A stretch of DNA of 64,000 nt from Bacteriovoracia bacterium (GCA_050246755.1 JBFWVL010000001.1:1536001-1600000), one strand, 5' to 3'; numbered from the stretch's first letter, positions 36,569 to 48,836 are shown. The notes: generated by a model not told the origin, from the sequence alone. Translations and numbers: made by a program.

Positions 36569-37414
36569 ATGAGATACGATTGGGCGATTATGACAAGCCG
36601 CTTCGCCTGGATGCAGCGCCCGCTGGCCGTTTTGATGGTTTCCATCTTCGCGTTGGCCGCTCCGGCCAAATTTGTGGATTATGCGGCGATCGGCGGCTTG
36701 TTAGCGCATTACTTGCTCGCTTTTTGGTTTCACCCTTGGGCGAAGGTAAAGAACGCGGGAGTGCTTGCACCCCATATCTTCTTGATTGGCATTTTGGCGC
36801 TAGTGGCTCTGCTCCAGAACTTTTATCAATTTCCCCATATTATTCTATTTTTTGGGATGCATTTCGTGCTGACGGAAATGTATGAGCGCAAGCAGGCGGA
36901 AGAGAGCGTGGTAAAGCTGGCGCGCGCTATCTATTACGCTGCCGCCTACCTTTGTTTCATGAAGTTCAATCTGGGCCTTGGGGAAATCGGATTTCCTCTG
37001 CTAGCCGCCGCCGCTGTGGCCCTCGCTTTTCTGTTGGTTAAGCTAAGGAGTTGGAAGCAAGCGATACGGGAGCTGGCGTTTTTCATTCCGATTGTTTTAA
37101 CGTTTCGTGAGCCTACGCGATTTAATTATATTTTACTCTATCATGTGGCCATCTGGTGGGCGATTCCCCTGCTGAATCCTTCGGGAGTTACGAAAAAATA
37201 CGTAAGAGACTCGGCGCTCGTGACCGGAATTTTCTTGGCCCTGGTATTCATCAGCTGCGCCTGGCAGGAATCGCTTTATTGGGCCTGGAACCGGGAAACG
37301 ATGCGGCTCGGCTATATCCATGTAGCCATCAGCCTGGTGATGTCGAGTTCGAATCCGCTGTTCGTGCGAACCGCGGCGCTGCGTGCGCAGGGATTTTTTC
37401 GCAATGTTCTCTAG
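36569..37414 (+). CDS. membrane protein with His residues in TM helices, function unknown
   Basis: About 8 TMs; LAHY, GMHF, LYHV, YIHV. Confidence 0.6.
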   Translation: MRYDWAIMTSRFAWMQRPLAVLMVSIFALAAPAKFVDYAAIGGLLAHYLLAFWFHPWAKVKNAGVLAPHIFLIGILALVALLQNFYQFPHIILFFGMHFVLTEMYERKQAEESVVKLARAIYYAAAYLCFMKFNLGLGEIGFPLLAAAAVALAFLLVKLRSWKQAIRELAFFIPIVLTFREPTRFNYILLYHVAIWWAIPLLNPSGVTKKYVRDSALVTGIFLALVFISCAWQESLYWAWNRETMRLGYIHVAISLVMSSSNPLFVRTAALRAQGFFRNVL

Positions 37415-38450
37415 GTTGATTTCCGCCTGGCGCTGGCCCGTAATTTTTCTTCTGGTCTTTTTTTCGCTGGATGCGTTCGTGGCGCGTTCGGGGACGGCTG
37501 CCCGCTTCTTAACCAAATATTCCGACATCGCCTTCGACAATCCATTGCGATTTTTCTATAAGTTTAGCCGCACAGTGCGAGATCCGGCGAAACCGCTGGC
37601 TATTTTTTTAGGGTCTAGCGTGGCCCGCGAAGGCTTCGACGAAGAAATCGTCCAAGCCGAGTTACGGCAGAGTGCGCAGGTAATCAACTTAGGTTTTTTT
37701 CATGGAAGGCCAGTGGATCTCTGGATGCTTTCGGATCAGCTCATGAGGCTTCAGCCGGATCTAGTGGTGCTGCCTATGAATCCAGGAGATATCCTGCTGG
37801 AATATAGTTATCGCCTCACGATGCCATATTATTTCAGCGAAAAAATCTTCGAGCTCGTAGGAACCCGGGAGGTTATCGGTAACTGGCGGGAGTTTTTTTA
37901 TGCTGGGGTGTCCCGCGCTTCGGTGATTTTTCGTTACCGGGATTCTATCGGCTCGGCGCTGCTTAGGTTCGGCCAGGATCAGCTTGGCTTGGAGCCGTGG
38001 AGAAAAAACGAAGAAAAATTCCGCTTTTATCAGGAGATGGAACACCTGCCGGATCTGGACCCTTCCTTTTCCTTCTTCGGGCAGGATTTCCGGCCGGACT
38101 ATGACCTGAGCGTGCGGGCGATGGAAAGGCTTTTGCGGTTTTTTTCTGAACGGCGCGTGCGGGTGGTATTCGTACCCATGCCCAACCACCCTAAGTTAGA
38201 TTCTGAATTGTTACGGCTGCAGCGCCGCGATCTAAGTGATTTCAACCGGGTCGTATTTCCGCGCTTCCTTAGTGGCTGGGCCGCGGCACCGGGGGTGAAC
38301 GTAGCGGCGCTGCCGGTAAGCCTCATACATAATTCCGACTTCAGCGATTACGTGCACGTGAATGCCGGTGGCCGGGAAAAATTGTCACGCTGGTTCGCGA
38401 AGTGGCTAAGCGAGAGCAAGCTTCTCGAAACGAAGGTGCCGGGGCCATGA
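37404..38450 (+). CDS. SGNH-hydrolase-like periplasmic O-acyltransferase partner (AlgJ/DltD-like)
   Basis: N-terminal TM, FLGSS block I, VINLG, FSDYVHVN (DxxH); adjacent MBOAT; likely start ATG 37404. Confidence 0.75.
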   Translation: MFSRLISAWRWPVIFLLVFFSLDAFVARSGTAARFLTKYSDIAFDNPLRFFYKFSRTVRDPAKPLAIFLGSSVAREGFDEEIVQAELRQSAQVINLGFFHGRPVDLWMLSDQLMRLQPDLVVLPMNPGDILLEYSYRLTMPYYFSEKIFELVGTREVIGNWREFFYAGVSRASVIFRYRDSIGSALLRFGQDQLGLEPWRKNEEKFRFYQEMEHLPDLDPSFSFFGQDFRPDYDLSVRAMERLLRFFSERRVRVVFVPMPNHPKLDSELLRLQRRDLSDFNRVVFPRFLSGWAAAPGVNVAALPVSLIHNSDFSDYVHVNAGGREKLSRWFAKWLSESKLLETKVPGP

Positions 38451-39865
38451 CCTTTAACTCCATCGAATTCTGGGTATTTTTCGCCGCCGTTTTCTCGCTC
38501 TATTTACGCTTGGGCCAGAGAAAGCAAAATTGGCTTCTTTTGGCGGCTAGCTATGCTTTCTATTTTTCCATCGCTCGCTTTTTTGTGCTGTTGCTTTGCT
38601 TCACGACCATATTCGATTTTTTCTGCGGAAAAATGATCGCGCAAGCCTCTACCCCAGGCCGCCGGCGCCGGTATTTGCTGCTAAGTATTCTTAGTAATAT
38701 TTCCGTCTTGCTCGTATTTAAGTACCTCGATTTCTTTTCCGCGCATGTGTCACAGATCTTCGGTACCGGCACCTCGGGTGTGGTATTTAATCTGGCCGTC
38801 CCGATTGGCTTGTCGTTTTATATCCTGCAATCGATTAGCTACGTGATCGATGTGTATCGCGGCGATTGCAAAGCCCACGAGCGGATCTCCGAGTATGCGC
38901 TCTACATCGCGTTTTTTCCGCAGTTACTGGCAGGCCCAATTGAGCGAGCGTCTCGTATGCTTCCGCAGTTCGGTTCGGCCCGCGCCATCACGGGTGAAAG
39001 CTGGAAAGCCGGCCTTTGGCTTTGCTTCTGGGGACTGATCGAAAAATGCGTGGTGAGTGATAATCTCCAGGCCCGGATTATTACGCCCTATTTCCAGTCG
39101 GGGGGCGATAGCAACGGATTGAGCACTTTACTGGTGCTGTGGTCTTGCAGCATGCGAATTTATTTGGATTTCGACGGATATTCCAATATTGCTCGCGGGG
39201 TGGCACGGCTCATGGGCTTCGATTTATCGGCCAATTTTTTCCTGCCGAACTACGCCGTGAGCTCCAAGGATTTGTGGCGCCGCTTTCACATCACTTTCTA
39301 TCGTTGGGCCCGCGACTATATTTATATTCCGCTCGTAAAAAATTTACGTCTACCCGTGTGGGTGGCGTTGCCCGTAGTATTTATTCTTTCTGGTTTATGG
39401 CATCAGGTGAGCTGGACCTTCGTTTGCTGGGGAGCATTTGAAGCGACGGTAATTTTATTATCGGAAATTCCCGGGCGCTTTCTCGCTCCCATTTACGCGG
39501 CCACCCGCGGCTTTCCTAAGTTTCTTCTTACCGTGGCGGGTCTGATGAGCACGAAGTTTTTCCGCGCCATCAGCACGGCCTTTTTCGTGGCCGAAAGCGT
39601 GCCCACCGCAATGGACAGCATCCGCCCCGTTCTGCAGTTGGCTAGCTGGCGCCTGGATCGTGAATTCTTAGGCCTCTTATTTCTCTTCCTTTTTTTTACC
39701 CTTCCCCTTCGTCCCGTTGAGTTCTTGCAGCTGCGTAAAAATAAACTATTGGCGCCGCTAGAGCTAAGCCCTCCGCTTTTCGCCGGTCTATTGTTTTTCT
39801 TGGCTATTTTCTGGGTGGTCTACGGGGTAAATGCTGCCCAGCGTTTCGTTTACTTTCAGTTCTGA
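38447..39865 (+). CDS. MBOAT family O-acyltransferase (AlgI-like)
   Basis: MTFNS, PIGLSFY, FFPQLLAGPIER, YLDFDGYSNIARG, LWRRFHI, SGLWH, FVYFQF; start ATG 38447. Confidence 0.93.
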   Translation: MTFNSIEFWVFFAAVFSLYLRLGQRKQNWLLLAASYAFYFSIARFFVLLLCFTTIFDFFCGKMIAQASTPGRRRRYLLLSILSNISVLLVFKYLDFFSAHVSQIFGTGTSGVVFNLAVPIGLSFYILQSISYVIDVYRGDCKAHERISEYALYIAFFPQLLAGPIERASRMLPQFGSARAITGESWKAGLWLCFWGLIEKCVVSDNLQARIITPYFQSGGDSNGLSTLLVLWSCSMRIYLDFDGYSNIARGVARLMGFDLSANFFLPNYAVSSKDLWRRFHITFYRWARDYIYIPLVKNLRLPVWVALPVVFILSGLWHQVSWTFVCWGAFEATVILLSEIPGRFLAPIYAATRGFPKFLLTVAGLMSTKFFRAISTAFFVAESVPTAMDSIRPVLQLASWRLDREFLGLLFLFLFFTLPLRPVEFLQLRKNKLLAPLELSPPLFAGLLFFLAIFWVVYGVNAAQRFVYFQF

Positions 39866-39925: not shown

Positions 39926-41332
39926 ATGCTGAAAAATTTACTTTTATTGTTGTGCTTATTGGGGGGTTCTCAAAATTCGCGGGCCGATTCTTTGCCCGAT
40001 GAAGATGTACTTGCCCAGCTCAACTCTCTGCCGGGAGTGGAAGCCACCGAGAAAACCACTCGCGACGACGCCGCCAAAAATGTGCGCCGTTTTTCCGCCA
40101 CGATCGAACAGCCCGTGGATCACTTCAATCCGAAATCGGCCAAGTTTCGCCAGAAGCTGGTGATCTTTCACCGTGGTTATAAAGAGCCAATGGTTCTTCA
40201 GACCAGCGGTTATATTATTTTTGGCGAACGGCTTTCCCGCTTGGCCTCGGTATTTGGCACGAATCAAATTCAGGTGGAGCACCGCTACTTCGGAGAATCT
40301 ACTCCGGTGCCCACCGACTGGAGCAAGCTCACGGTGCGCCAGAGCGCCGAGGATTTTCATCACATCGCGGAAACGTTTAAATCCACCTATTCCGCTCGTT
40401 GGGTAAATACCGGCGCGAGTAAGGGCGGAATGACTTCGGTTTTCCATCGGCGCTTCTATCCCAATGATTTGGCCGGCACCGTGGCCGACGTGGCGCCGTT
40501 TTCCTACGCACTCGACGACGACAGGTACGTGGCTTTCGTGGACGCCGTGGGGGGCGCTACATACGCGGACTGTCGAGAGCGGCTCTATGATTTGCAGCAG
40601 GCGCTTCTTCGGAGAAGTGAAGAAATTCTTCCCGAGATCGAGGGGAGTTACGAAAAACTGGGAGACAAGCTGATCGCCTACGAATCCGCGGTGGTAGAAA
40701 TGCCCTTCGTGTTCTGGCAATACGGCGATCCCACGAATGCGCAGTGGGGTTGCGGGGCGCTGCCTGCTGCGTCTGCTTCGGCGCATACTCTCGCGAATTT
40801 CTTGAAGGTGGCCAATAATCCTAATAGTTCCGCCGACGCCGGCCTTGAAATTTTTCAGCCCTACTTTTTTCAGGCCGCAGCGGAGCTCGGCGGGCCGGGC
40901 GCGAAGCTCTCCCACCTGCGGGGACTGCTGAAGTATCCCTACGTGCTGGATCCATTTTTACCTAAGGGCGTGAGGACTCCTTACTCCAACGGTGTGCTTC
41001 TCGATATGCGTGGCTGGGCCGCGGAATCGGCGAATAAGTTACTTTTTATTTATGGGGAATTCGATCCCTGGACGGCCGGCTCTTTCCCTCGCCTGCAGAC
41101 CGGCGAAAAAGCGGATAACCATCAGTTCGTGGTGCCGAGGGGAAATCACAGTGCCAATTTTATGATGCTGCCGGGCACCCAGCGGTCCGAAGCTATCGCT
41201 ACGCTTAGCCGTTGGCTAAATAAGGCACCGGTGGCGAGCGAAACATCGCTGCAGGCGTTCGGGCCCACCGCCGTTGACGATTCCCTCGAAGCACTCGAGC
41301 TTCGTGCCTTGCGTTCCTACCGGCCTCGCTAG
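39926..41332 (+). CDS. exported serine aminopeptidase (S37/S28 tripeptidyl-peptidase-like)
   Basis: Signal peptide, EQPVDH, VEHRYF, TGASKGG nucleophile, YGEFDPW, GNH. Confidence 0.88.
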   Translation: MLKNLLLLLCLLGGSQNSRADSLPDEDVLAQLNSLPGVEATEKTTRDDAAKNVRRFSATIEQPVDHFNPKSAKFRQKLVIFHRGYKEPMVLQTSGYIIFGERLSRLASVFGTNQIQVEHRYFGESTPVPTDWSKLTVRQSAEDFHHIAETFKSTYSARWVNTGASKGGMTSVFHRRFYPNDLAGTVADVAPFSYALDDDRYVAFVDAVGGATYADCRERLYDLQQALLRRSEEILPEIEGSYEKLGDKLIAYESAVVEMPFVFWQYGDPTNAQWGCGALPAASASAHTLANFLKVANNPNSSADAGLEIFQPYFFQAAAELGGPGAKLSHLRGLLKYPYVLDPFLPKGVRTPYSNGVLLDMRGWAAESANKLLFIYGEFDPWTAGSFPRLQTGEKADNHQFVVPRGNHSANFMMLPGTQRSEAIATLSRWLNKAPVASETSLQAFGPTAVDDSLEALELRALRSYRPR

Positions 41333-41438: not shown

Positions 41439-42677
41439 ATGCTTGGTGAAATGCCATTTTTTCTCTTCAAGAATAGATCCAAAATAGTAGCCGTATCGAG
41501 CCTATTTTTCCTCTTATCGCTCAGCCTGCTTGCGGGTTGCGCGAAGGACAAAAACGACGAGCCGCCCACGCCGAAGGTGACGGAGCGGTCTTCCGTGCTC
41601 GCGGGTTCTCTCACCGAAAACGTGACTGCGATTCATAAAGAAGCGGCTTACCAGGATCCCTGCGAAGAACAGTTTCGGGACGCGCAGCTCGAAATAGCCA
41701 AAGTTTTGGATGCAAAGGCTTCCGAGATCACCGCGTTCACCAAAAAAAAATCGGAGAATACCGCCGCTTCGTACCGCCGGGTACGGCTTGGGTCCATCCA
41801 AGTTCGGGAACTCGTAAACCCGGTTTCTCCCAAGCCGGGCTGGCAGAGCTATCGTACTACTTGGAAGACGATACTCGAAGATTACCATGCCATTAAGGGT
41901 ACGCCCGTGAACGACTATTGGGTTCAGCTAAATGCCGATGTCCGAGGCATTTTGTTGGACGACGTGGATCGCGTGGTTCATTCGTATAATATTTACTTGG
42001 ACAAAGACTCCGGCCCAAAGATCGAGCGCATGGTGGCGGCGATTCAAAAGTGCGTTGATGTCCCGGGATGCGCGTCGATAGAGTGGCCGCCTGATGTTTC
42101 GGATTTTGTGATCCAGCAGCCGTATTACGGCTCGTATCATCGCGGCATTGAGAGAAAAGAAAGCTTGGTCGAAAAGCGCAAGATGATGCAAAGATTTTTG
42201 TCCTACGCACTCGGCGATCTAAAAAGTTACCGATTCGAGCCCACTCCAAAAATGCAAAGAGTGAGCACGGGTCGCTATTACCTCCAGGTAGACCCAGGGC
42301 CCCTGGAGGAAGTTTCCGATCAGCTCCGCGGATATATCGAGAGCGTATGGCGCTCTTCCCAAGAGCAGGTTTCCATCAAGTGGAAAGACGCGCGCAGCGC
42401 TTCGGATATCTACCGCATCGTTATCGGCGCCACCGTGGGCGACCGTGCCTTCGTAACGAGGAAAAATAAAACGATCACGCTATTTTCCGACGTGCGCGCG
42501 AAGTCCATCGCCCACGAGTTTGGCCACGTGATGGGATTCAACGATCGATATTTCACCATTTGGCACCCTGAGAGCTGCGAATATGTGGTTCAGTACAGCG
42601 CCGAAGATATCATGTCGGATCCTTCCACCGGCGTGGTGCTCCAGGAACACTGGGACGACCTGGCCCGTTACTACTGA
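41439..42677 (+). CDS. lipoprotein with C-terminal zinc metalloprotease motif
   Basis: Lipobox LAGC; AHEFGHVMGFND and Met-turn DIMS; start could be 41451. Confidence 0.75.
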   Translation: MLGEMPFFLFKNRSKIVAVSSLFFLLSLSLLAGCAKDKNDEPPTPKVTERSSVLAGSLTENVTAIHKEAAYQDPCEEQFRDAQLEIAKVLDAKASEITAFTKKKSENTAASYRRVRLGSIQVRELVNPVSPKPGWQSYRTTWKTILEDYHAIKGTPVNDYWVQLNADVRGILLDDVDRVVHSYNIYLDKDSGPKIERMVAAIQKCVDVPGCASIEWPPDVSDFVIQQPYYGSYHRGIERKESLVEKRKMMQRFLSYALGDLKSYRFEPTPKMQRVSTGRYYLQVDPGPLEEVSDQLRGYIESVWRSSQEQVSIKWKDARSASDIYRIVIGATVGDRAFVTRKNKTITLFSDVRAKSIAHEFGHVMGFNDRYFTIWHPESCEYVVQYSAEDIMSDPSTGVVLQEHWDDLARYY

Positions 42678-42685
42678 AGAATCCC

Positions 42686-42734
42686 GAAAAAGAAAAAAGC
42701 GAGCCCCTCCCGGGAGCTCGCTTTTTTCTTTTTC
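42686..42734. terminator. bidirectional rho-independent terminator
   Basis: GAAAAAGAAAAAAGCGAGC...GCTCGCTTTTTTCTTTTTC between convergent genes. Confidence 0.9.
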
Positions 42735-42746
42735 TATCCTAACCGA

Positions 42747-44321
42747 CTAGTCGATGTAGGGGCGGGCTTGTTTCAGGAAGACCGTGGGAACGCCATTGTC
42801 TTCCGAGTCCACTTTGAACTCCAGGTCGAGGGCGAAGTCCGCTTTGTCCGCGCCGAAGATCGGCTTGAAGTGAGCGTGGGCCTTCATCACTTGGTAGGCG
42901 AGGTCTTTGGCCTGTTCTACCGAGAGAATTTCCTTCGGATTGTCGTGATCGAGGATGGTCTCGTTGTCGTCGGCAATATTGGATTTCTGCAAGTAGCGCA
43001 CTTCGTACTGGGCTACGTTGAGGGGGTCGCGGTCGTTGAAGAGGATCAAAACCTTCTCGGGCTTGATTCCTGATTCAGGGTTCATCACGCTGAATTTATC
43101 GCCGCGCTGGGCTTCTACGTATACGCCCGGAGCGGTGAGATTAGGATCTTTCGAAACGTTTTTCGTCACCACTACGCCGCTGGCACCTTCATCGCTGAAG
43201 GAGGGATTCACTTGGATGCCCATTTTCACATCGCCATGAGGGATACGGAAGAAGGCTCTCTCTTCGTAGGCACGCAGGTTCCAAACCGAGGCCCATACTT
43301 TGCGCAGGGTTTCACTGAGGGCGGCCACTTTTTTCTCCCGCTTCTTCTCTTTGCCGTCTTTCGCAGGCTTATAAGAGTAAGAGTCGTAGAGGCCAGCGCC
43401 GTTGAAGTTCGGCAGGTCTTCCGAGTTGGTAGAGGAGCGCAGCTTCAGCTTACGGGGAACTCCGTCCTTCGTCACTTTCTTGTCGAAGAGCTCGATCAGG
43501 CGGTCGATCAAGGCCGGGCTGATCACGGCGGTTTCGGCCATCATCAGGTCTTGCAGGGCCTTGAGCTTCTCTTCACGGTAGCTCACCTTGGAAACGCGCT
43601 TCATGAGGGGATCGCGGAGGATTCCTTCGATAGAGGCTTTGATTTTTGGGTTACTGTCGATGAACTCTTGGTAGAAGTAGAAGGGGATACCGAAGCCCGT
43701 GCGCACCACGGTGCGATCCGCGGTATTAAGGGCTTTAGCGAGCTCGCCGCAGTTGGCGGCTTTCGATCCTACTTTGTCGGCATCGGCAGAGGAAAGATCT
43801 TCGGTGCGAATCACGTCGCGGGCACTCATGTCGGCCTTTAGCTTAACGTCTACGCCTTTTTTAGCTTGGTAGAACGCGGTGGCTTCGGCTTCGGTGGATT
43901 TCTCGAGAAGGATCTGCCCGTCTTTCGAAAGCACCATGCGAACCCAGTCTCCGTCTTTGAAGGGCTTCATCAGCGAGCTGCTGAGGCCGCCGTCGAGCTC
44001 GGAAATATCGAGGTTCGGGGTTCCGCGCGCGCGGGATTTCAGCTGAACGTGCGAGAGCAGGTTCTGCTGCTTGAGGGTGATCGATCCCGTTACCACGGCG
44101 AGATCCATGGGGAGCTCGGCGAAAACGGGCAAGGAGAGAGGGCTCAGGGCTTTGAACTTAGGAGACAGCTTCTGAACGTCGTCCACGGAAAGGTAAACGA
44201 GCTGTCCTTTCGCTTCACCCGGGTTCATCACGCGGGCGGCCGCGAAGGTTATATTGGGGATCAGGTTCAATAGGAGTGTAAGGGTAATCACTCTACGTAC
44301 GTTGCTTCCGATATTTTTCAT
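42747..44321 (-). CDS. exported dikinase-like protein: phosphohistidine swivel domain plus PPDK_N ATP-grasp domain
   Basis: Signal peptide (TFA|A); GSIT..LLSH(91)VQLKSRARGTPN; VGSKAAN; LRSSTNSEDL..FNGAGLYDS; VWASVW; DLEFK; KQARP. Confidence 0.85.
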   Translation of the reverse strand: MKNIGSNVRRVITLTLLLNLIPNITFAAARVMNPGEAKGQLVYLSVDDVQKLSPKFKALSPLSLPVFAELPMDLAVVTGSITLKQQNLLSHVQLKSRARGTPNLDISELDGGLSSSLMKPFKDGDWVRMVLSKDGQILLEKSTEAEATAFYQAKKGVDVKLKADMSARDVIRTEDLSSADADKVGSKAANCGELAKALNTADRTVVRTGFGIPFYFYQEFIDSNPKIKASIEGILRDPLMKRVSKVSYREEKLKALQDLMMAETAVISPALIDRLIELFDKKVTKDGVPRKLKLRSSTNSEDLPNFNGAGLYDSYSYKPAKDGKEKKREKKVAALSETLRKVWASVWNLRAYEERAFFRIPHGDVKMGIQVNPSFSDEGASGVVVTKNVSKDPNLTAPGVYVEAQRGDKFSVMNPESGIKPEKVLILFNDRDPLNVAQYEVRYLQKSNIADDNETILDHDNPKEILSVEQAKDLAYQVMKAHAHFKPIFGADKADFALDLEFKVDSEDNGVPTVFLKQARPYID

Positions 44322-44322
44322 A

Positions 44323-45705
44323 TTATTTCTTTCTCAGTTTTTCGATAACGTTGGAGGCGGTATTAAGCGCCGAACTTTTGATGGTGCTGTCCATGAAGTA
44401 AGACATCTTGGGTTCGATCGAAACCCATTGGTCGTACGTTGGGCGGAATGCTTCCGTGAGAGTAGCCGTGGAGGCATCCACGATATCTCCGAGAAGAGAG
44501 GCGGCGTCACCGGCGGTAGTGGCTTCCTTCTGGAAGTAAACCCAGTTGTCCTTGATCAAGAAACCTTCCACATAGATCGTGTTCACAACCGTTTCGGTGA
44601 TCTTGTTGCTAAGGGTCTTCACGGTGGCGGAAGAGATTCCGCTGATTTCTTTGTTCAATACTTTGGTGGTTTCCGCGAGCAACGCGAGGGTTAGTCCGCG
44701 TTTCTCGTAGGGAACCCGGGCGGTAGCGATATCAGAGCGCAGGTTGGCGGCAGCACGCGAGAGCTCGAGGAGTCCGTCGGTGAAGGTCGCCTTTTTGGCC
44801 ACTTTATCGGCCGCCGCTTTGATCTCGGGGTAGCCGAGTTTCTTGGCGGTATTACTGATTTTCCCTACGCTGATCCCAAAGTATTCCACGAGGATTCTGC
44901 GAAGCTCCGGGAAGTAGGAATCATTGCGGTAGCTGGGATAGCTTTTCAGGAACTGATCGAGCTGGCCGACCACTTCTTTGCTCAGCTGGTTATGGATATT
45001 ATTGCGGAGCTTATACATCTCCTGCAGCCCGCTTTGGTCCACGCCCCAGCCGCCGGCGTTATAGTAGTCGAAGGCCTGGGCGATCAGATCGCGAGCGCGT
45101 TCGAGCGAGGCCGAGGCTACGATCGGGCTTTTATTCACGAGGATGAAAGCCGGAAGATACTGGAAATCTTCCGTGATGGAGCTGAGGTAGAAATTGAAGA
45201 AATACTGAGCGAAGGTTTGTTCGTTCACCACGTCGCTGATCCCACGGTAGGCGAAGGCCATTCCCATCTGGGATTGCGGAAATTGGTTCAGGTACTGCTT
45301 TTCCAGCACCCATCCGCGCACCATGGCCGCCGCTTTCGGCATCGCCTTGGCACCCACGTCGGCCAGGCGCTTATGCTCGAGAGGGTGATTGCTCATCGGA
45401 TCTCCGAACACGTATTCACCCATGAGCTCGTAGTAGTTCGTGGTGAAGAGATTGCCCAAGTAGAACGTGTCTTGAGCGATCATGTCGCGGGCGATTTTGT
45501 TGCGGTAAGCGGCCTGGAACAAGGCGCCGCCGTCCACGTGGGTGCCATTTTTTACGGCCACACGCGAGCGGGCACCCTGGATATAGTTCAGCTCAAAGGG
45601 ACCTTTATTGGTCGAATTGATCTGGGCCCAGTTCTGTTTCAGGTTCGCCGCATGCGCCGTTAAGGCATAGGTGGCGAGAAAGAGCGTAATAAAGAAGTTT
45701 CTCAT
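44323..45705 (-). CDS. exported, mostly helical hypothetical protein
   Basis: Signal peptide (AHA|A); ends 1 nt before the dikinase start. Confidence 0.8.
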   Translation of the reverse strand: MRNFFITLFLATYALTAHAANLKQNWAQINSTNKGPFELNYIQGARSRVAVKNGTHVDGGALFQAAYRNKIARDMIAQDTFYLGNLFTTNYYELMGEYVFGDPMSNHPLEHKRLADVGAKAMPKAAAMVRGWVLEKQYLNQFPQSQMGMAFAYRGISDVVNEQTFAQYFFNFYLSSITEDFQYLPAFILVNKSPIVASASLERARDLIAQAFDYYNAGGWGVDQSGLQEMYKLRNNIHNQLSKEVVGQLDQFLKSYPSYRNDSYFPELRRILVEYFGISVGKISNTAKKLGYPEIKAAADKVAKKATFTDGLLELSRAAANLRSDIATARVPYEKRGLTLALLAETTKVLNKEISGISSATVKTLSNKITETVVNTIYVEGFLIKDNWVYFQKEATTAGDAASLLGDIVDASTATLTEAFRPTYDQWVSIEPKMSYFMDSTIKSSALNTASNVIEKLRKK

Positions 45706-45716
45706 GATTCAAATCC

Positions 45717-47546
45717 TCAGCGGGCTTGGTTAATGATCTGATTGGCTTCGCGGTCGAAAGCGTTTTCTCCGCAGGCTTCTTTATCTGAGAATGGTGCGCA
45801 GCCGCGGATACGTCCCATGAGGCGAACGATACGTTTGCTGAGCGCCGAGTTGCTGATCTCTTCGAGGCCCGAGGTGTCGCTGGGAAGATAGAGCTGGATC
45901 TTGTCGCGCTCATATTCCTGTTCGTAGAGCGGAAGCACGCCGTTCACTACCATGCGCGTCTTCATTCCACGCTTCTGGAAATCCAGGTACGAAGGAACCG
46001 AAACGCCAGGGTTGTTGAAAAGGTAAGTTCCGTCTTCCGTTACGGTGAATACGTTCTTCGCGCCGTAGAGAGTGGTGTAGAACTTCAGTTTTCCGCGTTC
46101 GGCGATGTCGAGATCTTTTCCCTCACGATTTGCGAGGCCGCTGGCGGCCTGCGTTCCGTAGGAGATAGAGTATTTCACGCCCATTACTTCGGGTTTGCCG
46201 TCGCCGTCGATGTCGTATACGTCGAAATCCTTAGGGTCTTGCATGAAGGTATATACTTGGGTGGCAACGCTGTTCTGCGAGGGCAGAATGGAGCGCATTT
46301 CCCAGGCGTGGCCCGAAGCGAGCCGCGAGCAACCGTGGGAAACTCCGCCGCGCATTACGGCCCAGAGAGTCTGGTGATTGGCAGGAATGTTCAATGCCGC
46401 GCGCACGGCTTTCGAAGTCCAGTTGCGCACGCCTGGATTGTGGAAGCCGTTTCCGATGCCTTCGTAGTCCATCTTGGGGATCCAAGCGTAGTAAGGCTCT
46501 TGGCGGATATTGTCGAAATCGGCGTAAGAGCGCGAGAGGAATTTCCAGAGACCGGTGGTGCCGAAGCTCGAAATCGAGTTTCCGAATTGATCGCGAGTTT
46601 TTTCCACTACGGTGCCGGTGGGATATATCGTGGTGAATTCAGTATAGGCAAGCAGGCAGCTGGCCGCGCTGGTGCACTGGATGAGATTTTCCCAGCGTCC
46701 GTTCACAAACTGACGCGTCTGGTATTTGTTGCCAGTGAGGGTCTTGAAGAGGTCGAGGGCGTTGAGTACGAACTCGTCCTCGTTGCCGTCAAGCTTCGCC
46801 ATTTCGGCTAGAGTTACGAGTTTGGCCATCACTTCGGGCGTAGGCTTGGCGATATAGTTCACGCGTCCCCATACGAGGCTATCGATCGCGATCACGGTCT
46901 GGCCGGGATTTTTCGCGAAGAAGGCCGTGGTATCGGCCTGATTGGCGAGCATGGCGCGGATCTGAGATTTCCATTTGCGGAATTCATTCGTGAGGTTTAG
47001 GCGGATAGTATAGATGCGGCCGGGGTTCAGCGCGGTGATGGTGGCCAAGCCCTTGGCGTAGATTTCTTCACGAGACGTTGCGCCTGAGTTCGCACGCTCT
47101 ACGAAGGGGAGGATGCCATAGGCATCGGACTCGATGATTTTGTTAAAATTGGAGAGCTGGGGTAGGAAGGCGGCGCTTTTTGAGTCGATCGCGGTGTTCA
47201 CGATCGTGGTGGCGCCCACGCGGCTCGTTACGTTCTTGTAAAACTTATAGCGTTTCACGAGATCGAAGAGGTAATCGCTCGCGGTTTGCTCATCAAGAAT
47301 CACGCTGATGCGGGTATTGTTTCCGCGCGCGAGGCGGATATGAATCCGGGAAGGGGTGCTCACGCGAGGAGCGAAGCCGGTATAGAAACTGGGATAGTAA
47401 CCGCCAATGGCGTTGTTACCGGCGGTCCAGGTGGTTCCCCACACTGGCAAAGAGGCGTTAAGATCGTCAATGGTGAAGGCGGCCTGAGCGTTGCTTAGCC
47501 AGCCAGCGGAGAGCGCGAGAGCGCCTACGAGCGATACGAATTTCAT
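45717..47546 (-). CDS. exported protein with L,D-transpeptidase-like H...SHGCxR motif
   Basis: Start ATG 47546 with GAGGT RBS; signal peptide (AQA|A); GFHNPG...GVSHGCSRL; DIDGDGKPE Ca-binding-like loop. Confidence 0.7.
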   Translation of the reverse strand: MKFVSLVGALALSAGWLSNAQAAFTIDDLNASLPVWGTTWTAGNNAIGGYYPSFYTGFAPRVSTPSRIHIRLARGNNTRISVILDEQTASDYLFDLVKRYKFYKNVTSRVGATTIVNTAIDSKSAAFLPQLSNFNKIIESDAYGILPFVERANSGATSREEIYAKGLATITALNPGRIYTIRLNLTNEFRKWKSQIRAMLANQADTTAFFAKNPGQTVIAIDSLVWGRVNYIAKPTPEVMAKLVTLAEMAKLDGNEDEFVLNALDLFKTLTGNKYQTRQFVNGRWENLIQCTSAASCLLAYTEFTTIYPTGTVVEKTRDQFGNSISSFGTTGLWKFLSRSYADFDNIRQEPYYAWIPKMDYEGIGNGFHNPGVRNWTSKAVRAALNIPANHQTLWAVMRGGVSHGCSRLASGHAWEMRSILPSQNSVATQVYTFMQDPKDFDVYDIDGDGKPEVMGVKYSISYGTQAASGLANREGKDLDIAERGKLKFYTTLYGAKNVFTVTEDGTYLFNNPGVSVPSYLDFQKRGMKTRMVVNGVLPLYEQEYERDKIQLYLPSDTSGLEEISNSALSKRIVRLMGRIRGCAPFSDKEACGENAFDREANQIINQAR

Positions 47547-47891
47547 ATTTTTTACCTCAGTTGAAAGCGAAAAAAATCTCAGTTGGCCGGAACCTACCCG
47601 ACAACAACGCGCCAAGTCAATATGCTTTAACGCTGAGCGCAAATTATTTTCCACCGAGAAAAAGAGGCCTGCGCAAAGAGTGACCAAGTAACGCAGCAAG
47701 GTGAGGATGTAAGAGAAACGCGTGCATTGTAGGCTGGATTCCGCTTTCCGGGTACCGTTGCAAGCAAATGAAAGAAAAAAGCTTATAAAAACTACACACT
47801 TAGCTTGGTCAATGGGGCGCGGCACATTATCCTAAATAGACCACGCCATTGGTAATTCTATTCGTTTCAACGGTTCATGGAGGAGCTGTAA

Positions 47892-48836
47892 ATGAATGTA
47901 TCTCTCGTGTTTCTGTCCTTATTAGTCTTCGCTTCATGCGGCCAAACGACACCTGGACAAGCGCAGGTACCTGTCACTCCCGTGACCGATCCGAACTTCC
48001 TGGTGCTGGCCAACGGGACAGATTTGAGAACAATCAAAGTATCCGGCGCGGCTCTCTCCTTGGCGCGCGGAACGGGGAACAGTTTTGGGGCAAGCCAGCA
48101 GGCGCAGTATATGGCGCTGAAATCTCGTTCGAAGGCTGGGGATCCTAAGATTCAGTGGGTGCTCATGGACCTCGATAGCCACGTGATCGTGGACCAAAGT
48201 GCCAATACGGAAAAACGAATGTTTGGGGCTTCAGCCTCAAAAATTTTCGTGGCCGGAACTCTGTTGGATAAGCAGAGGGGGGAGCTTAGCTCCAAGCAAC
48301 TGCAGCTGATGTCGGACATGCTGGTGATTTCTTCCAATACAGCCTGGGTGGAATTGCAAAGCCAGATAGGCGACGGCAACTCAGACCGCGGCCGCGAGCT
48401 GAACTACCAGTTTACCCAACGGATGGGGTACAAAAATACCCGCGGTTTTCAGGGGAACTGGGGCTCTATGCATGGCAATGAGCTGTCCTCAGCCGACGTA
48501 GCCGAATTCCTCTACGATACCTACCAGGGCAATTATCCTGGGGCAGATACGATGTGGAAAATTATGCATACCTCGCGGACGGGAGCCGAGCGGGCAAAAA
48601 AATATATGCCGGCGGATCTGGTGCTGGGCGGAAAAACTGGAACCTATGCCGGAAGCACCGTGGATCCCGATACCGGGAGAGGGATCAAGGTAGACGTGGC
48701 CCACCAAGAGATCGTGTTTAATATGGGCGGGCGTCAATACGCGCTGGTGGTGCTTGCCGATACGGGCACGAACGAAACCGCCGCTTTATTGGCCGGTGGC
48801 TTATTGCGCGAATACACCACGTATCGCGGGAAATAA
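47892..48836 (+). CDS. serine beta-lactamase/DD-peptidase-fold lipoprotein
   Basis: GGAGG RBS; lipobox FASC; SASK (SxxK), SSN (SxN), KTG. Confidence 0.85.
   Translation: MNVSLVFLSLLVFASCGQTTPGQAQVPVTPVTDPNFLVLANGTDLRTIKVSGAALSLARGTGNSFGASQQAQYMALKSRSKAGDPKIQWVLMDLDSHVIVDQSANTEKRMFGASASKIFVAGTLLDKQRGELSSKQLQLMSDMLVISSNTAWVELQSQIGDGNSDRGRELNYQFTQRMGYKNTRGFQGNWGSMHGNELSSADVAEFLYDTYQGNYPGADTMWKIMHTSRTGAERAKKYMPADLVLGGKTGTYAGSTVDPDTGRGIKVDVAHQEIVFNMGGRQYALVVLADTGTNETAALLAGGLLREYTTYRGK

Follow-up and report, generated by a model that had tools for sequence, protein, structure and literature searches.

To our knowledge, dikinases that work through a phosphohistidine swivel have been described only from the cytoplasm or from plastids, and the periplasm is by textbook account free of ATP. 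Phenylphosphate synthase is one two-component small-molecule dikinase. Another is HpeHI of Rhodococcus, a dikinase split over two proteins that reportedly uses a His-swivel mechanism with the ATP-grasp on HpeI and the swivel and acceptor portions on HpeH (PMC12167813). RPH is reported to be a three-domain His-swivel dikinase (PMC4844700). In potato GWD1, an all-helical central domain (~440 residues) reportedly precedes the His domain, which is followed by the ATP domain; the central domain contacts the ATP domain, and the His domain swings back and forth between these two (PMC13553574).

Here we describe, in a predatory-type bacterium (Bacteriovoracia bacterium, GCA_050246755.1), a conserved gene cluster in which an ATP-using phosphate-transfer enzyme is apparently exported together with two cell-wall-type enzymes. 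The window analyzed was a stretch of 64,000 nucleotides (JBFWVL010000001.1:1536001-1600000), and domain anatomy, export signals, B-C fusion, co-occurrence, and intact catalytic residues were computed in silico. The first-pass annotation had read the locus as three co-oriented genes, 11 and 1 nt apart, closed by one terminator. The ORF listing and a script check returned exactly this arrangement for genes A, B, and C (A/B gap, 11 nt; B/C gap, 1 nt), and the single terminator was borne out by a strong hairpin (−35 kcal/mol, z = −6.0 upon folding; 0 of 200 shuffles as stable). The hairpin was found by direct reading and folding; none of the seven terminator-like sites of a consensus scan lay on the minus strand. 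The frame of gene A extends without a stop as far as a GTG at 47825. A promoter-like site upstream of A was weak (9 of 12 matches; one site found versus 2.5 expected).

Features of the A-B-C-D locus (positions counted from the first nucleotide of the window)
Feature	Position	Strand	Remarks
Gene A	45717-47546	minus	609 aa, counted from the ATG at which homologues start; ORF listing
Gene B	44323-45705	minus	460 aa; ORF listing
Gene C	42747-44321	minus	524 aa; ORF listing
Gene D	47892-48836	plus	314 aa, divergent from gene A; PF13354 match
Hairpin terminator	42686-42734	minus	bidirectional, A- and U-tracts on either side; common to the convergent gene
Promoter-like site	47826-47855	minus	upstream of A, within the 345-nt A/D divergent spacer
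Signal peptide of C	44238-44321	minus	residues 1-28; model pLDDT about 51-53
Phosphohistidine swivel domain of C	43857-44237	minus	about residues 29-155
His91 codon of C	44049-44051	minus	script check
ATP-grasp nucleotide-binding domain of C	42750-43814	minus	residues 170-524

Gene C encodes a signal peptide followed by a phosphohistidine swivel domain and a PPDK-type ATP-grasp. PF01326 (PPDK_N) matched residues 182 to 521 (E = 7.6e-22; 78.5 bits versus a cutoff of 27), and a profile search gave a match to PEP synthase 9dae at 5.4e-10. The PEP/pyruvate-binding barrel (PF02896) was not found in C, which ends at residue 524. PF00391 was not detected by Pfam in C itself at E ≤ 1; it was found at the swivel position in 5 of 10 fused relatives tested, above cutoff in 2. 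When the swivel of C was aligned by hhalign with the canonical PPDK His domains of relatives (probability, 52.6%; E = 1.4e-4), SH91 fell on the TSH motif. None of the 27 aligned homologues departed from S90 and H91 or from the ATP-grasp residues K187, R295, E301, D302, D499, E501, Q518, and R520, and the motif SH[VIL]Q[LI]K was present in 115 of the 120 listed homologues. Judged by these alignments, the catalytic residues of C are intact. The PF01326 match and the H91 alignment thus uphold the earlier description of a swivel histidine, His91, lying N-terminal to an intact PPDK-type ATP-grasp without a pyruvate barrel, and the conservation on which that description depended.

In the AF2 model of C (pLDDT, 89.1; pTM, 0.85), His91 starts a helix (residues 91 to 99). 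Foldseek matched the swivel fold to MccF and glycerol dehydratase reactivase, and its best structural matches for C were the small-molecule dikinases RPH (E = 2.9e-15) and HpeI (7.3e-15), not glucan dikinases; PEP synthase (4.6e-14) and PPDK (4.9e-7) followed. C shares with PEP synthase and PPDK the PF01326 ATP-grasp and the aligned catalytic histidine, but its domain order is reversed and it lacks the PEP/pyruvate TIM barrel; NCBIfam PEP synthase models gave 73.6 bits versus a cutoff of 598. A canonical ~908-aa PEP synthase/PPDK-type enzyme with a PEP-utilizers (PF00391) domain is encoded elsewhere in the genome. RPH, the best structural match to the ATP-grasp of C, has the order ATP-grasp, RIF-binding domain, and swivel and, unlike C, lacks a signal peptide; on C, the NCBIfam RPH model gave 27.5 bits versus a cutoff of 999. 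The plant glucan water dikinase order that had been proposed for C agrees with that reported for potato GWD1.

We count B as the third domain of the dikinase because it is fused to C in relatives and is predicted to bind C, and we propose it as the acceptor-binding subunit. Single ORFs of 949, 989, and 973 aa in three genomes carry B, the His domain, and the ATP-grasp, with B N-terminal to the other two in all three fused loci. Among 1.84 billion representatives, only 103 proteins were matched by the B profile; 23 of these were long forms (894 to 1051 aa) with B within the N-terminal half, and PF01326 was found at the C terminus in all 10 long B-C representatives tested. Prediction of the B-C complex gave an ipSAE of 0.67 (runs, 0.65 to 0.69) versus 0.00 for the best control, with partner pLDDT values of 85 to 86 and at least 95% contact agreement between runs; 58 of the 80 solved complexes reached this ipSAE mark, as did 2 of the 110 mismatched pairs, a calibration that applies only roughly here because the alignments were our own. 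Since B is absent from all solved structures, this pass is not likely to be a memory of a like complex. The predicted contact of B is with the ATP-grasp domain of C. B had no match in Pfam, PDB, or Atlas; its sole PDB profile match, an LXG helical protein (E = 1.9e-4), is probably noise from helical composition, and likeness to the RIF-binding domain was not found in the same PDB profile search. Residues R234, N235, H238, and N239 of B were invariant.

Like GWD1 and PWD, the fused proteins run from an acceptor-side domain through the phosphohistidine domain to a C-terminal PPDK-type ATP-binding domain, and the pyruvate barrel is absent from both the plant enzyme and B-C. With about 440 mature residues, B fills in the fused relatives the position reported for the central domain of GWD1, and the predicted contact with the ATP-grasp corresponds as well. 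B has, however, no detectable sequence similarity to GWD, and its profile matched no GWD-length protein among the same representatives; CBM45 and CBM20 had no Pfam match in A, B, C, or 10 fused relatives. Also unlike GWD, B-C is bacterial, by its N-termini Sec-exported, made of two polypeptides, and partnered with the L,D-transpeptidase-like protein A. With HpeHI the locus shares a dikinase spread over separate polypeptides, a His swivel as its mechanism, and an ATP-grasp structurally close to that of HpeI. The cut falls elsewhere than the one reported for HpeHI, with the candidate acceptor subunit B on one side and swivel plus ATP-grasp (C) on the other. HpeHI is also part of a catabolic pathway of the cytoplasm, in contrast to B and C with their signal peptides.

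Gene A encodes an exported-type protein with a divergent L,D-transpeptidase-like motif (VSHGCSRL) at Cys406; its 197 homologues are all unnamed or "hypothetical." Five cysteines (C291, C297, C406, C583, and C592) were invariant in 25 of 25 sequences and are the only ones in A; disulfides are probable. H369, 37 residues upstream of C406, was likewise invariant. The Cys motif was found in 99 of the 120 listed homologues, 22 of which have S or R in place of the adjacent histidine. No Pfam match was obtained for A at E ≤ 1, YkuD (PF03734) included, and no PDB sequence match. L,D-transpeptidases headed the Foldseek list for the AF2 model of A (pLDDT, 91.2), but weakly (best E = 0.031; probability, 0.90; 135 columns), with no match at E ≤ 1e-3, and hhalign aligned A with canonical YkuD domains over 20 columns only, around the Cys motif (probability, 40%; E = 2.9e-4). 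A thus shares with these enzymes the invariant cysteine in an (S)xGCxR(L/F/M) motif and the top structural matches, but differs in lacking PF03734, in its far larger size (609 aa), in its extra domains, and in its weak similarity scores; the four canonical YkuD genes of the genome are located elsewhere. From motif and model, A appears to be a cysteine enzyme with a weakly L,D-transpeptidase-like active site. Gene D would probably encode a lipoprotein with a class A beta-lactamase fold, as suggested by a lipobox-like N terminus (Cys16), a match to the broad fold family PF13354 (E = 3.5e-10; 40 bits versus a cutoff of 22), and the presence of all three of SxxK (SASK at residue 114), SxN (SSN at 147), and KTG (at 248). 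The NCBIfam class A beta-lactamase model NF033103 stayed below its cutoff (25.5 versus 200 bits).

Export was assessed with a strict home-made heuristic (charged n-region, a hydrophobic stretch of 10 residues, and small amino acids at −3/−1). Among homologues starting with M, 106 of 113 passed for C, 105 of 117 for A, and 106 of 116 for B; the failures mostly lacked K/R or were N-terminally truncated. In 15 of 15 C homologues read by eye, the hydrophobic N terminus stopped just before the conserved VMNPGEA block, and the fused B-C forms had a single, N-terminal signal peptide with no second one between domains. The invariance of all five cysteines of A and the lipobox-like N terminus of D also fit export. 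By this heuristic, the signal peptides initially assigned to A, B, and C correspond to Sec-type N-termini that are kept across homologues, and all three proteins look exported.

Among 251 genomes sampled across the phylum, A (E ≤ 1e-20), B (profile E ≤ 1e-10), and C (E ≤ 1e-60) were present in the same 9 genomes, always adjacent, and no other genome had any of them at these thresholds. The trio thus co-occurs strictly, a point that the first-pass annotation had named for checking. The A-B-C order was kept in all 8 split-form loci with room for it, and A was always directly upstream of the dikinase genes, also in fused-form loci. D adjoined the trio in 9 of 9 split-form loci and is part of the module there; it was not found within 14 kb around three fused loci. 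Members of the fused family with signal peptides were present in Microbaculum, an alphaproteobacterium. More distant exported fused dikinases had no A- or D-like neighbors, and in one case genes with FGE-sulfatase domains took their place. Given these distant forms and the lack of D near the fused loci, the cell-wall link may hold for this clade only.

We give about an even chance to the reading that B and C form a two-subunit, Sec-exported His-swivel dikinase that works with A (and D) on an envelope polymer or building block. In this scheme, where the catalytic direction, the kind of acceptor, the roles of A and D, and the origin of the nucleotide are all inferred, the ATP-grasp of C would take the beta- and gamma-phosphates of a nucleoside triphosphate, leaving His91 phosphorylated, and the swivel domain would hand the phosphate over at an acceptor site that B provides. 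This subunit would lie against a helical insert of the ATP-grasp, by analogy with the all-helical central domain of GWD beside its ATP-binding domain. A would act as the cysteine enzyme partner and D, in the closest clade, as a serine hydrolase lipoprotein partner. Because A is L,D-transpeptidase-like and D has a beta-lactamase fold, the cell envelope is the most likely arena, and the job would most likely be phosphorylation of an envelope polymer or building block; the two features that suggest a macromolecular acceptor are this weak likeness of A and the fold of D. Predation in the group of the host depends on editing of prey peptidoglycan, and peptidoglycan, the bacterium's own or the prey's, would be the leading acceptor candidate. 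Bdellovibrio reportedly strengthens the prey wall with L,D-transpeptidases (PMC11870529). Against the envelope dikinase stands the fact that no nucleotide source is evident for an exported enzyme. The small-molecule dikinases that head the structural matches of C, the absence of detectable likeness between B and any solved protein, the weak L,D-transpeptidase scores of A, the missing PF00391 match in C, and a B paralogue that stands alone in the genome also speak against it. ATP from prey, as suggested at first, cannot be a general answer, since the fused form in an alphaproteobacterium weakens this idea. In a wider and distinctly improbable version, exported His-swivel dikinases would be a widespread family running on extracytoplasmic nucleoside triphosphates (in predators, ATP leaking from prey), which in this clade would phosphorylate peptidoglycan or convert a stem-peptide carboxylate to an acyl-phosphate for A.

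The structural proximity of C to RPH and HpeI, the reported precedent of HpeHI for a two-protein dikinase (PMC12167813), and the fold of D would all suit an exported small-molecule phosphotransferase in which B binds an antibiotic, phenolic, xenobiotic, signal, or nutrient, C phosphorylates it, and A and D are further detoxifying or processing enzymes. We consider this unlikely, since the characterized small-molecule dikinases compared have the ATP-grasp first or on a separate subunit and none is reported to be exported, B showed no RIF-binding-domain likeness in the PDB profile search, D falls far under the beta-lactamase cutoff, and the ATP problem persists. It is very unlikely that the phosphohistidine domain instead serves a protein kinase whose acceptor is most simply A, the phosphate switching its cysteine-based activity: the constant company of A with B and C (9 of 9 genomes, always directly upstream, fused loci too) would be explained, and VadK is reported to be a PPDK-derived regulatory kinase. 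The wider fused family does without A, however, which means that A cannot serve as its general acceptor.

Water dikinases are effectively irreversible, no candidate high-energy envelope donor is at hand, and the module has no transporter or nucleotidase partner. These points make it highly improbable that His91 takes phosphate from an extracytoplasmic phospho-substrate to make nucleoside triphosphate from AMP and Pi or PPi, or that scavenged nucleotides are hydrolyzed, even though such a reverse or salvage reaction would avoid the need for periplasmic ATP and PPDK is reportedly ATP forming in bacteria and protozoa (PMC5371819). Finally, as export was judged by a home-made heuristic only, the proteins could be cytoplasmic with hydrophobic N-termini that are not signals, or the ATP-grasp could be vestigial, a dead binding module. 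This appears extremely unlikely, as the signal-like N-termini vary in sequence yet persist in roughly 90% or more of the members of each family, fusions drop the inner signal peptide and keep the outer one, and the cysteine pairs of A as well as His91 and the nucleotide-site residues of C are invariant.

Export signals on a whole dikinase machine, in hundreds of homologues and more than one phylum, conflict with the view of an ATP-free periplasm. Activity outside the cytoplasm would require one of three things: covalent modification at the expense of an extracytoplasmic nucleotide, a phosphate donor not yet known, or action within prey. The strict link to the L,D-transpeptidase-like A and the penicillin-binding-fold lipoprotein D points to an undescribed cell-wall modification; if the wider, improbable version above is true, this modification would be energy coupled and could mark or loosen the polymer, as phosphorylation loosens starch. 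B as a third domain, the strict A-B-C co-occurrence, the cell-wall-like partners, and the fused form beyond predators are new here; the first-pass annotation knew of no such system, and our literature search likewise found no published description of an exported dikinase with such partners. A genome record bearing the name Bdellovibrio bacteriovorus, a named species and not a metagenome bin, contained a homologue of B. Together with the split and fused forms, this homologue makes the question directly testable. A standalone paralogue of B was also found in the same genome as the locus, away from any A or C.

The genes A, B and C are co-oriented on the minus strand, with gaps of 11 nt between A and B and of 1 nt between B and C, in a genome assembled as 10 contigs (3.55 Mb in all); close protein relatives of the window carry the labels of Pseudobdellovibrionaceae, Bdellovibrionales or Oligoflexia MAGs. 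A hairpin 3' of C folded at −35 kcal/mol (z = −6.0), and 0 of 200 shuffles were as good. A consensus scan returned no minus-strand terminator after C, which was dismissed as a limit of the tool on direct reading and folding, and the closely spaced trio with a single terminator described in the first-pass annotation was confirmed. A GAGG box precedes the ATG at 47546, and 25 of 25 aligned homologues begin near this codon, at which the start of A was placed. The frame of A stays open 5' as far as a GTG at 47825, an extension that is supported by no homologue, and is open through most of the spacer, long for this region of the genome, that separates A from the divergent gene D.

Features of the dikinase locus and its surroundings (positions in the window)
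Feature	Position	Strand	Length	Description	Basis
A	45717-47546	minus	609 aa		ORF listing
B	44323-45705	minus	460 aa		ORF listing
C	42747-44321	minus	524 aa		ORF listing
D	47892-48836	plus		probable lipoprotein, class-A beta-lactamase fold	
Hairpin terminator	42686-42734			3' of C, A- and U-tracts on either side	direct reading and folding
A/D spacer	47547-47891		345 nt	divergent spacer	
Metalloprotease-motif gene	41439-42677	plus	412 aa	probable lipoprotein, convergent with C	
S37 (PS-10) peptidase gene	39926-41332	plus		signal peptide	
DUF1574-like and MBOAT genes	37383-39865	plus		overlapping pair	

Signal peptides, which had been assigned to all three proteins, were scored by a strict in-house heuristic on homologues beginning with M and were predicted for most of them (106/113 for C, 105/117 for A and 106/116 for B); failures mostly lacked K/R or were truncated. 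In the 15 homologues of C that were read, the variable hydrophobic N terminus stopped right before a conserved VMNPGEA block. Tat export of C was rejected, and Sec is the likely route, since homologues do not keep the RR of its n-region. Export of A, B and C is well supported in silico.

In Pfam, C matched PF01326 (PPDK_N; E = 7.6e-22, residues 182 to 521) and nothing else, and among NCBIfam models those for PEP synthase and rifampin phosphotransferase (RPH) covered the ATP-grasp alone, with scores far under their cut-offs. An AF2 model of C built from 27 homologues (pLDDT 89.1, pTM 0.85) matched RPH (2.9e-15), HpeI (7.3e-15), PEP synthase (4.6e-14) and PPDK (4.9e-7) in a Foldseek search of the PDB, and a part of about 150 columns matched the swivel-fold proteins MccF and glycerol dehydratase reactivase. 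In the model, His91 is the first residue of a helix (91 to 99); it was invariant in 27 of 27 aligned sequences, and its motif was present in 115 of 120 homologues of C among the matches listed. A profile of the N-terminal domain from 14 sequences, distant ones included, aligned over 101 columns with canonical PPDK His domains from seven related genomes (probability 52.6%, E = 1.4e-4); SH91 fell on the TSH motif, and GDW was paired with GDW. This profile comparison is moderate evidence for a PPDK-like His domain, a reading strengthened by matches to PF00391 at this position in 5 of 10 fused relatives (2 above the cut-off). The nucleotide-site residues K187, R295, E301, D302, D499, E501, Q518 and R520 were invariant; we take them, in part from alignments, to be the equivalents of PPDK K22, R92, D321, E323, Q335 and R337. 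On this domain evidence, C consists of a predicted signal peptide, a probable swivel His domain and an intact ATP-grasp, with no pyruvate barrel, and both this anatomy and the structural neighbors bear out the PPDK-type ATP-grasp that the first-pass annotation had recognized.

Protein B had no match in Pfam, NCBIfam, the PDB (phmmer) or the Atlas. Its place in the enzyme emerged from three less closely related genomes in the phylum (G047, G187 and G097), in which a homologue of A is followed by a single ORF (949, 989 and 973 aa, respectively) with a signal peptide, a B-like domain, a His domain and an ATP-grasp, and with no inner signal peptide. When 1.84 billion representatives were searched with the B profile, only 103 proteins were found; 23 of them are long (894 to 1051 aa) and have B in the N-terminal half, and the others are fragments or stand alone at about 455 aa. 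A C-terminal PF01326 was present in 10 of 10 long forms tested, and a signal-like hydrophobic N terminus in every long form read (P0375, P0391, P0430, P0445, P0408, P0435, P0439 and P0387); one cluster of long forms came from the alphaproteobacterium Microbaculum, and a homologue of B is present in a genome labeled Bdellovibrio bacteriovorus. A complex of mature C with mature B was predicted at an ipSAE of 0.67 (runs, 0.65 to 0.69; best control, 0.00), with a partner pLDDT of 85 to 86 and at least 95% of contacts agreeing between runs. Of 80 solved complexes 58 scored as high, as did 2 of 110 mismatched pairs; these counts are approximate, because custom alignments were used. The predicted interface joins C 233 to 252, a helical insert of the ATP-grasp with invariant D237, P238, Y248 and R249, to B 179 to 181 and 384 to 418. 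Taken together, the fusions, the rarity of the domain, the architecture of the long forms and the predicted B-C binding identify B, at the level of sequence and model, as the third domain of the dikinase, and its invariant residues R234, N235, H238 and N239 are a candidate acceptor or phosphate site.

Several weaker matches were set aside. Those to F420 (E = 0.096) and FG-GAP_3 (E = 0.18) in library scans of A and B were taken as noise; a match of the B profile to an LXG helical protein, the sole one in the PDB (E = 1.9e-4), was given no functional weight; and a BLASTP match of B to the N terminus of a distant fused protein at locus L006 (E = 0.028) was not counted as evidence. In the ESM Atlas, B's own model was poor (pLDDT 0.38) and yielded no usable match; the B part of one fused relative scored 0.81, which is a lead only. 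The B domain also occurred in proteins of about 535 to 620 aa (P0398, P0403, P0409 and P0444), and in one Atlas cluster PF00391 was found in 17% of members, which hints, as a lead only, at a third mode of splitting, with B and His on one chain and the ATP-grasp on another, as in HpeHI, a two-component small-molecule dikinase. The genome also encodes a free-standing paralogue of B (482 aa, 59 to 65% identical) at another site (L029:6820-8268, G000:C2:386819-388267). This paralogue carries a signal peptide of its own and an insert rich in Gly. It lies between a hydrophobic, membrane-protein-like ORF of 202 aa and an ORF of 478 aa, a context unrelated to the trio, with neither A nor C nearby.

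Known dikinases offer several alternative identities. The domain order of C is the reverse of that in PPDK, PEP synthase and RPH, and by its order and its lack of a barrel the enzyme is neither a PPDK nor a PEP synthase, despite the shared ATP-grasp. HpeHI is likewise split into two chains, but at a point different from that between B and C, and the system is therefore not of this type. In domain order C agrees with potato glucan water dikinase (GWD1): as the annotation had proposed for plant water dikinases, His precedes ATP-grasp in both (PMC13553574). The GWD1 report also describes an all-helical central domain of about 440 residues before the His domain, with a fixed interface to the ATP domain (PMC13553574), which B resembles in placement and predicted ATP-grasp contact, although B has no sequence similarity to it. 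Lacking CBMs and any sequence link through B, the system falls outside the GWD family; by analogy, it may work like a His-swivel dikinase of GWD order.

In an even sample of the phylum (251 genomes; thresholds of E ≤ 1e-60 for C, E ≤ 1e-20 for A and E ≤ 1e-10 for the B profile), A, B and C were found in the same 9 genomes and in no other, and were adjacent in 9 of 9; the nine are kin, and this co-occurrence is therefore not a statistical test. The order A-B-C was kept in 8 of 8 split-form loci with room (nine were seen outside the window; the ninth is a 2-kb contig with C and the ends of B and D). D, which has the motifs SASK, SSN and KTG and scores far under beta-lactamase family cut-offs, adjoins the trio in 9 of 9 split-form loci, where it is divergent upstream, co-directional downstream or convergent downstream; no D turned up within the 14 kb retrieved around the three fused loci. 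A contains exactly five cysteines, all invariant, which would fit two disulfides (C291/C297 and C583/C592) and one catalytic thiol (C406), a pattern that also bears on export. Its model (pLDDT 91.2) is without a strong structural neighbor, the top Foldseek matches being L,D-transpeptidases (E = 0.031 and weaker). No YkuD match was found in Pfam, nor any Pfam or NCBIfam family, nor anything by phmmer against the PDB; the A profile found nothing there below E = 0.098, and BLASTP gave no match to the L005 protein, a larger relative of the enzyme. Against YkuD domains of related genomes, hhalign aligned 20 columns only, around the invariant Cys406 motif (probability 40%). Whether A is an L,D-transpeptidase-like cysteine enzyme is about evenly balanced. 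In Bdellovibrio, L,D-transpeptidases and DD-peptidases are among the known tools for editing the prey wall (PMC11870529).

We consider it very probable that the pair B and C is a split, exported dikinase. C would be charged on His91 from a nucleoside triphosphate, its swivel domain would transfer phosphate to an acceptor that B binds, and A and D would act on the same substrate. The folds of A and D suggest peptidoglycan or another envelope polymer, a target that we put forward tentatively and think somewhat less probable than its opposite; exported split dikinase and envelope target together are the best explanation overall, one as apt to be right as wrong. The interpretation first proposed, an exported macromolecule-directed dikinase, is supported in part: established in silico are the co-occurrence, the B-C fusion, the anatomy with its intact catalytic residues, and the export signals, and the macromolecular acceptor is something that we infer. 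The periplasm is generally taken to lack ATP, and phosphate transfer to lipid A there draws on lipid donors. Possible ways around this are prey or other extracellular ATP, onward secretion of the proteins into prey cells, an enzyme running in reverse, or some other phosphate donor. Family members in a genome of Microbaculum, which is not known to be a predator, argue against prey ATP, a possible source in the first-pass annotation, as a general answer. In agreement with the annotation, no description of an exported dikinase was found in full-text searches of the main text of openly available articles. In the main text of a B. bacteriovorus predation proteome (PMC12546842), dikinase, pyruvate-binding, phosphoenolpyruvate synthase and ATP-grasp each occurred 0 times; its supplements may list a homologue. 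The novelty lies in the unexpected compartment of an otherwise known catalytic machine, in its proposed acceptor domain, which is an orphan, and in its new partners.

In the genome G035, exported fused dikinases that are more distantly related lie beside FGE-sulfatase-domain genes, with neither A nor D nearby. Together with the lone B paralogue and apparently cytoplasmic relatives, this context limits the cell-wall reading and indicates that the conserved core is the enzyme of B, His and ATP-grasp, and that A, and D even more so, are partners specific to the clade. One G035 locus (L054:8300-17984, G035:C5) has a pair of paralogous genes for exported fused dikinases (970 and 981 aa), intermingled with a 213-aa ORF and two genes for FGE-sulfatase-domain proteins (300 and 731 aa); the enzyme core may here have another set of partners. 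A 667-aa protein (L009:1192-3195, minus strand) has no signal peptide, an unknown N-terminal domain, a His domain and PF01326, and is followed by a membrane-transporter-like gene; similar matches occurred in L008, L010 to L012 and L014, and C-matching open frames of 676 to 713 aa in several related genomes. Judged by sequence, L009-type proteins look like a cytoplasmic branch of the His-then-ATP-grasp architecture. Still larger relatives (L056:6746-10606, plus strand; L005:271-3405, minus strand) include a 1286-aa protein with PF01326 at its extreme C terminus and an exported form of 1044 aa that continues for about 340 residues past the ATP-grasp.

Three neighbors of the trio, a 412-aa HExxH lipoprotein, an S37 peptidase and an Na/H exchanger, were rejected as module members, not being kept beside it elsewhere. 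The probable lipoprotein belongs to no Pfam family but has the metalloprotease motif HEFGH, and its gene is preceded by that of the peptidase. About 3 kb from the module, a DUF1574-like gene overlaps one for an MBOAT membrane O-acyltransferase, a pairing typical of polysaccharide or teichoic-acid O-acylation systems.
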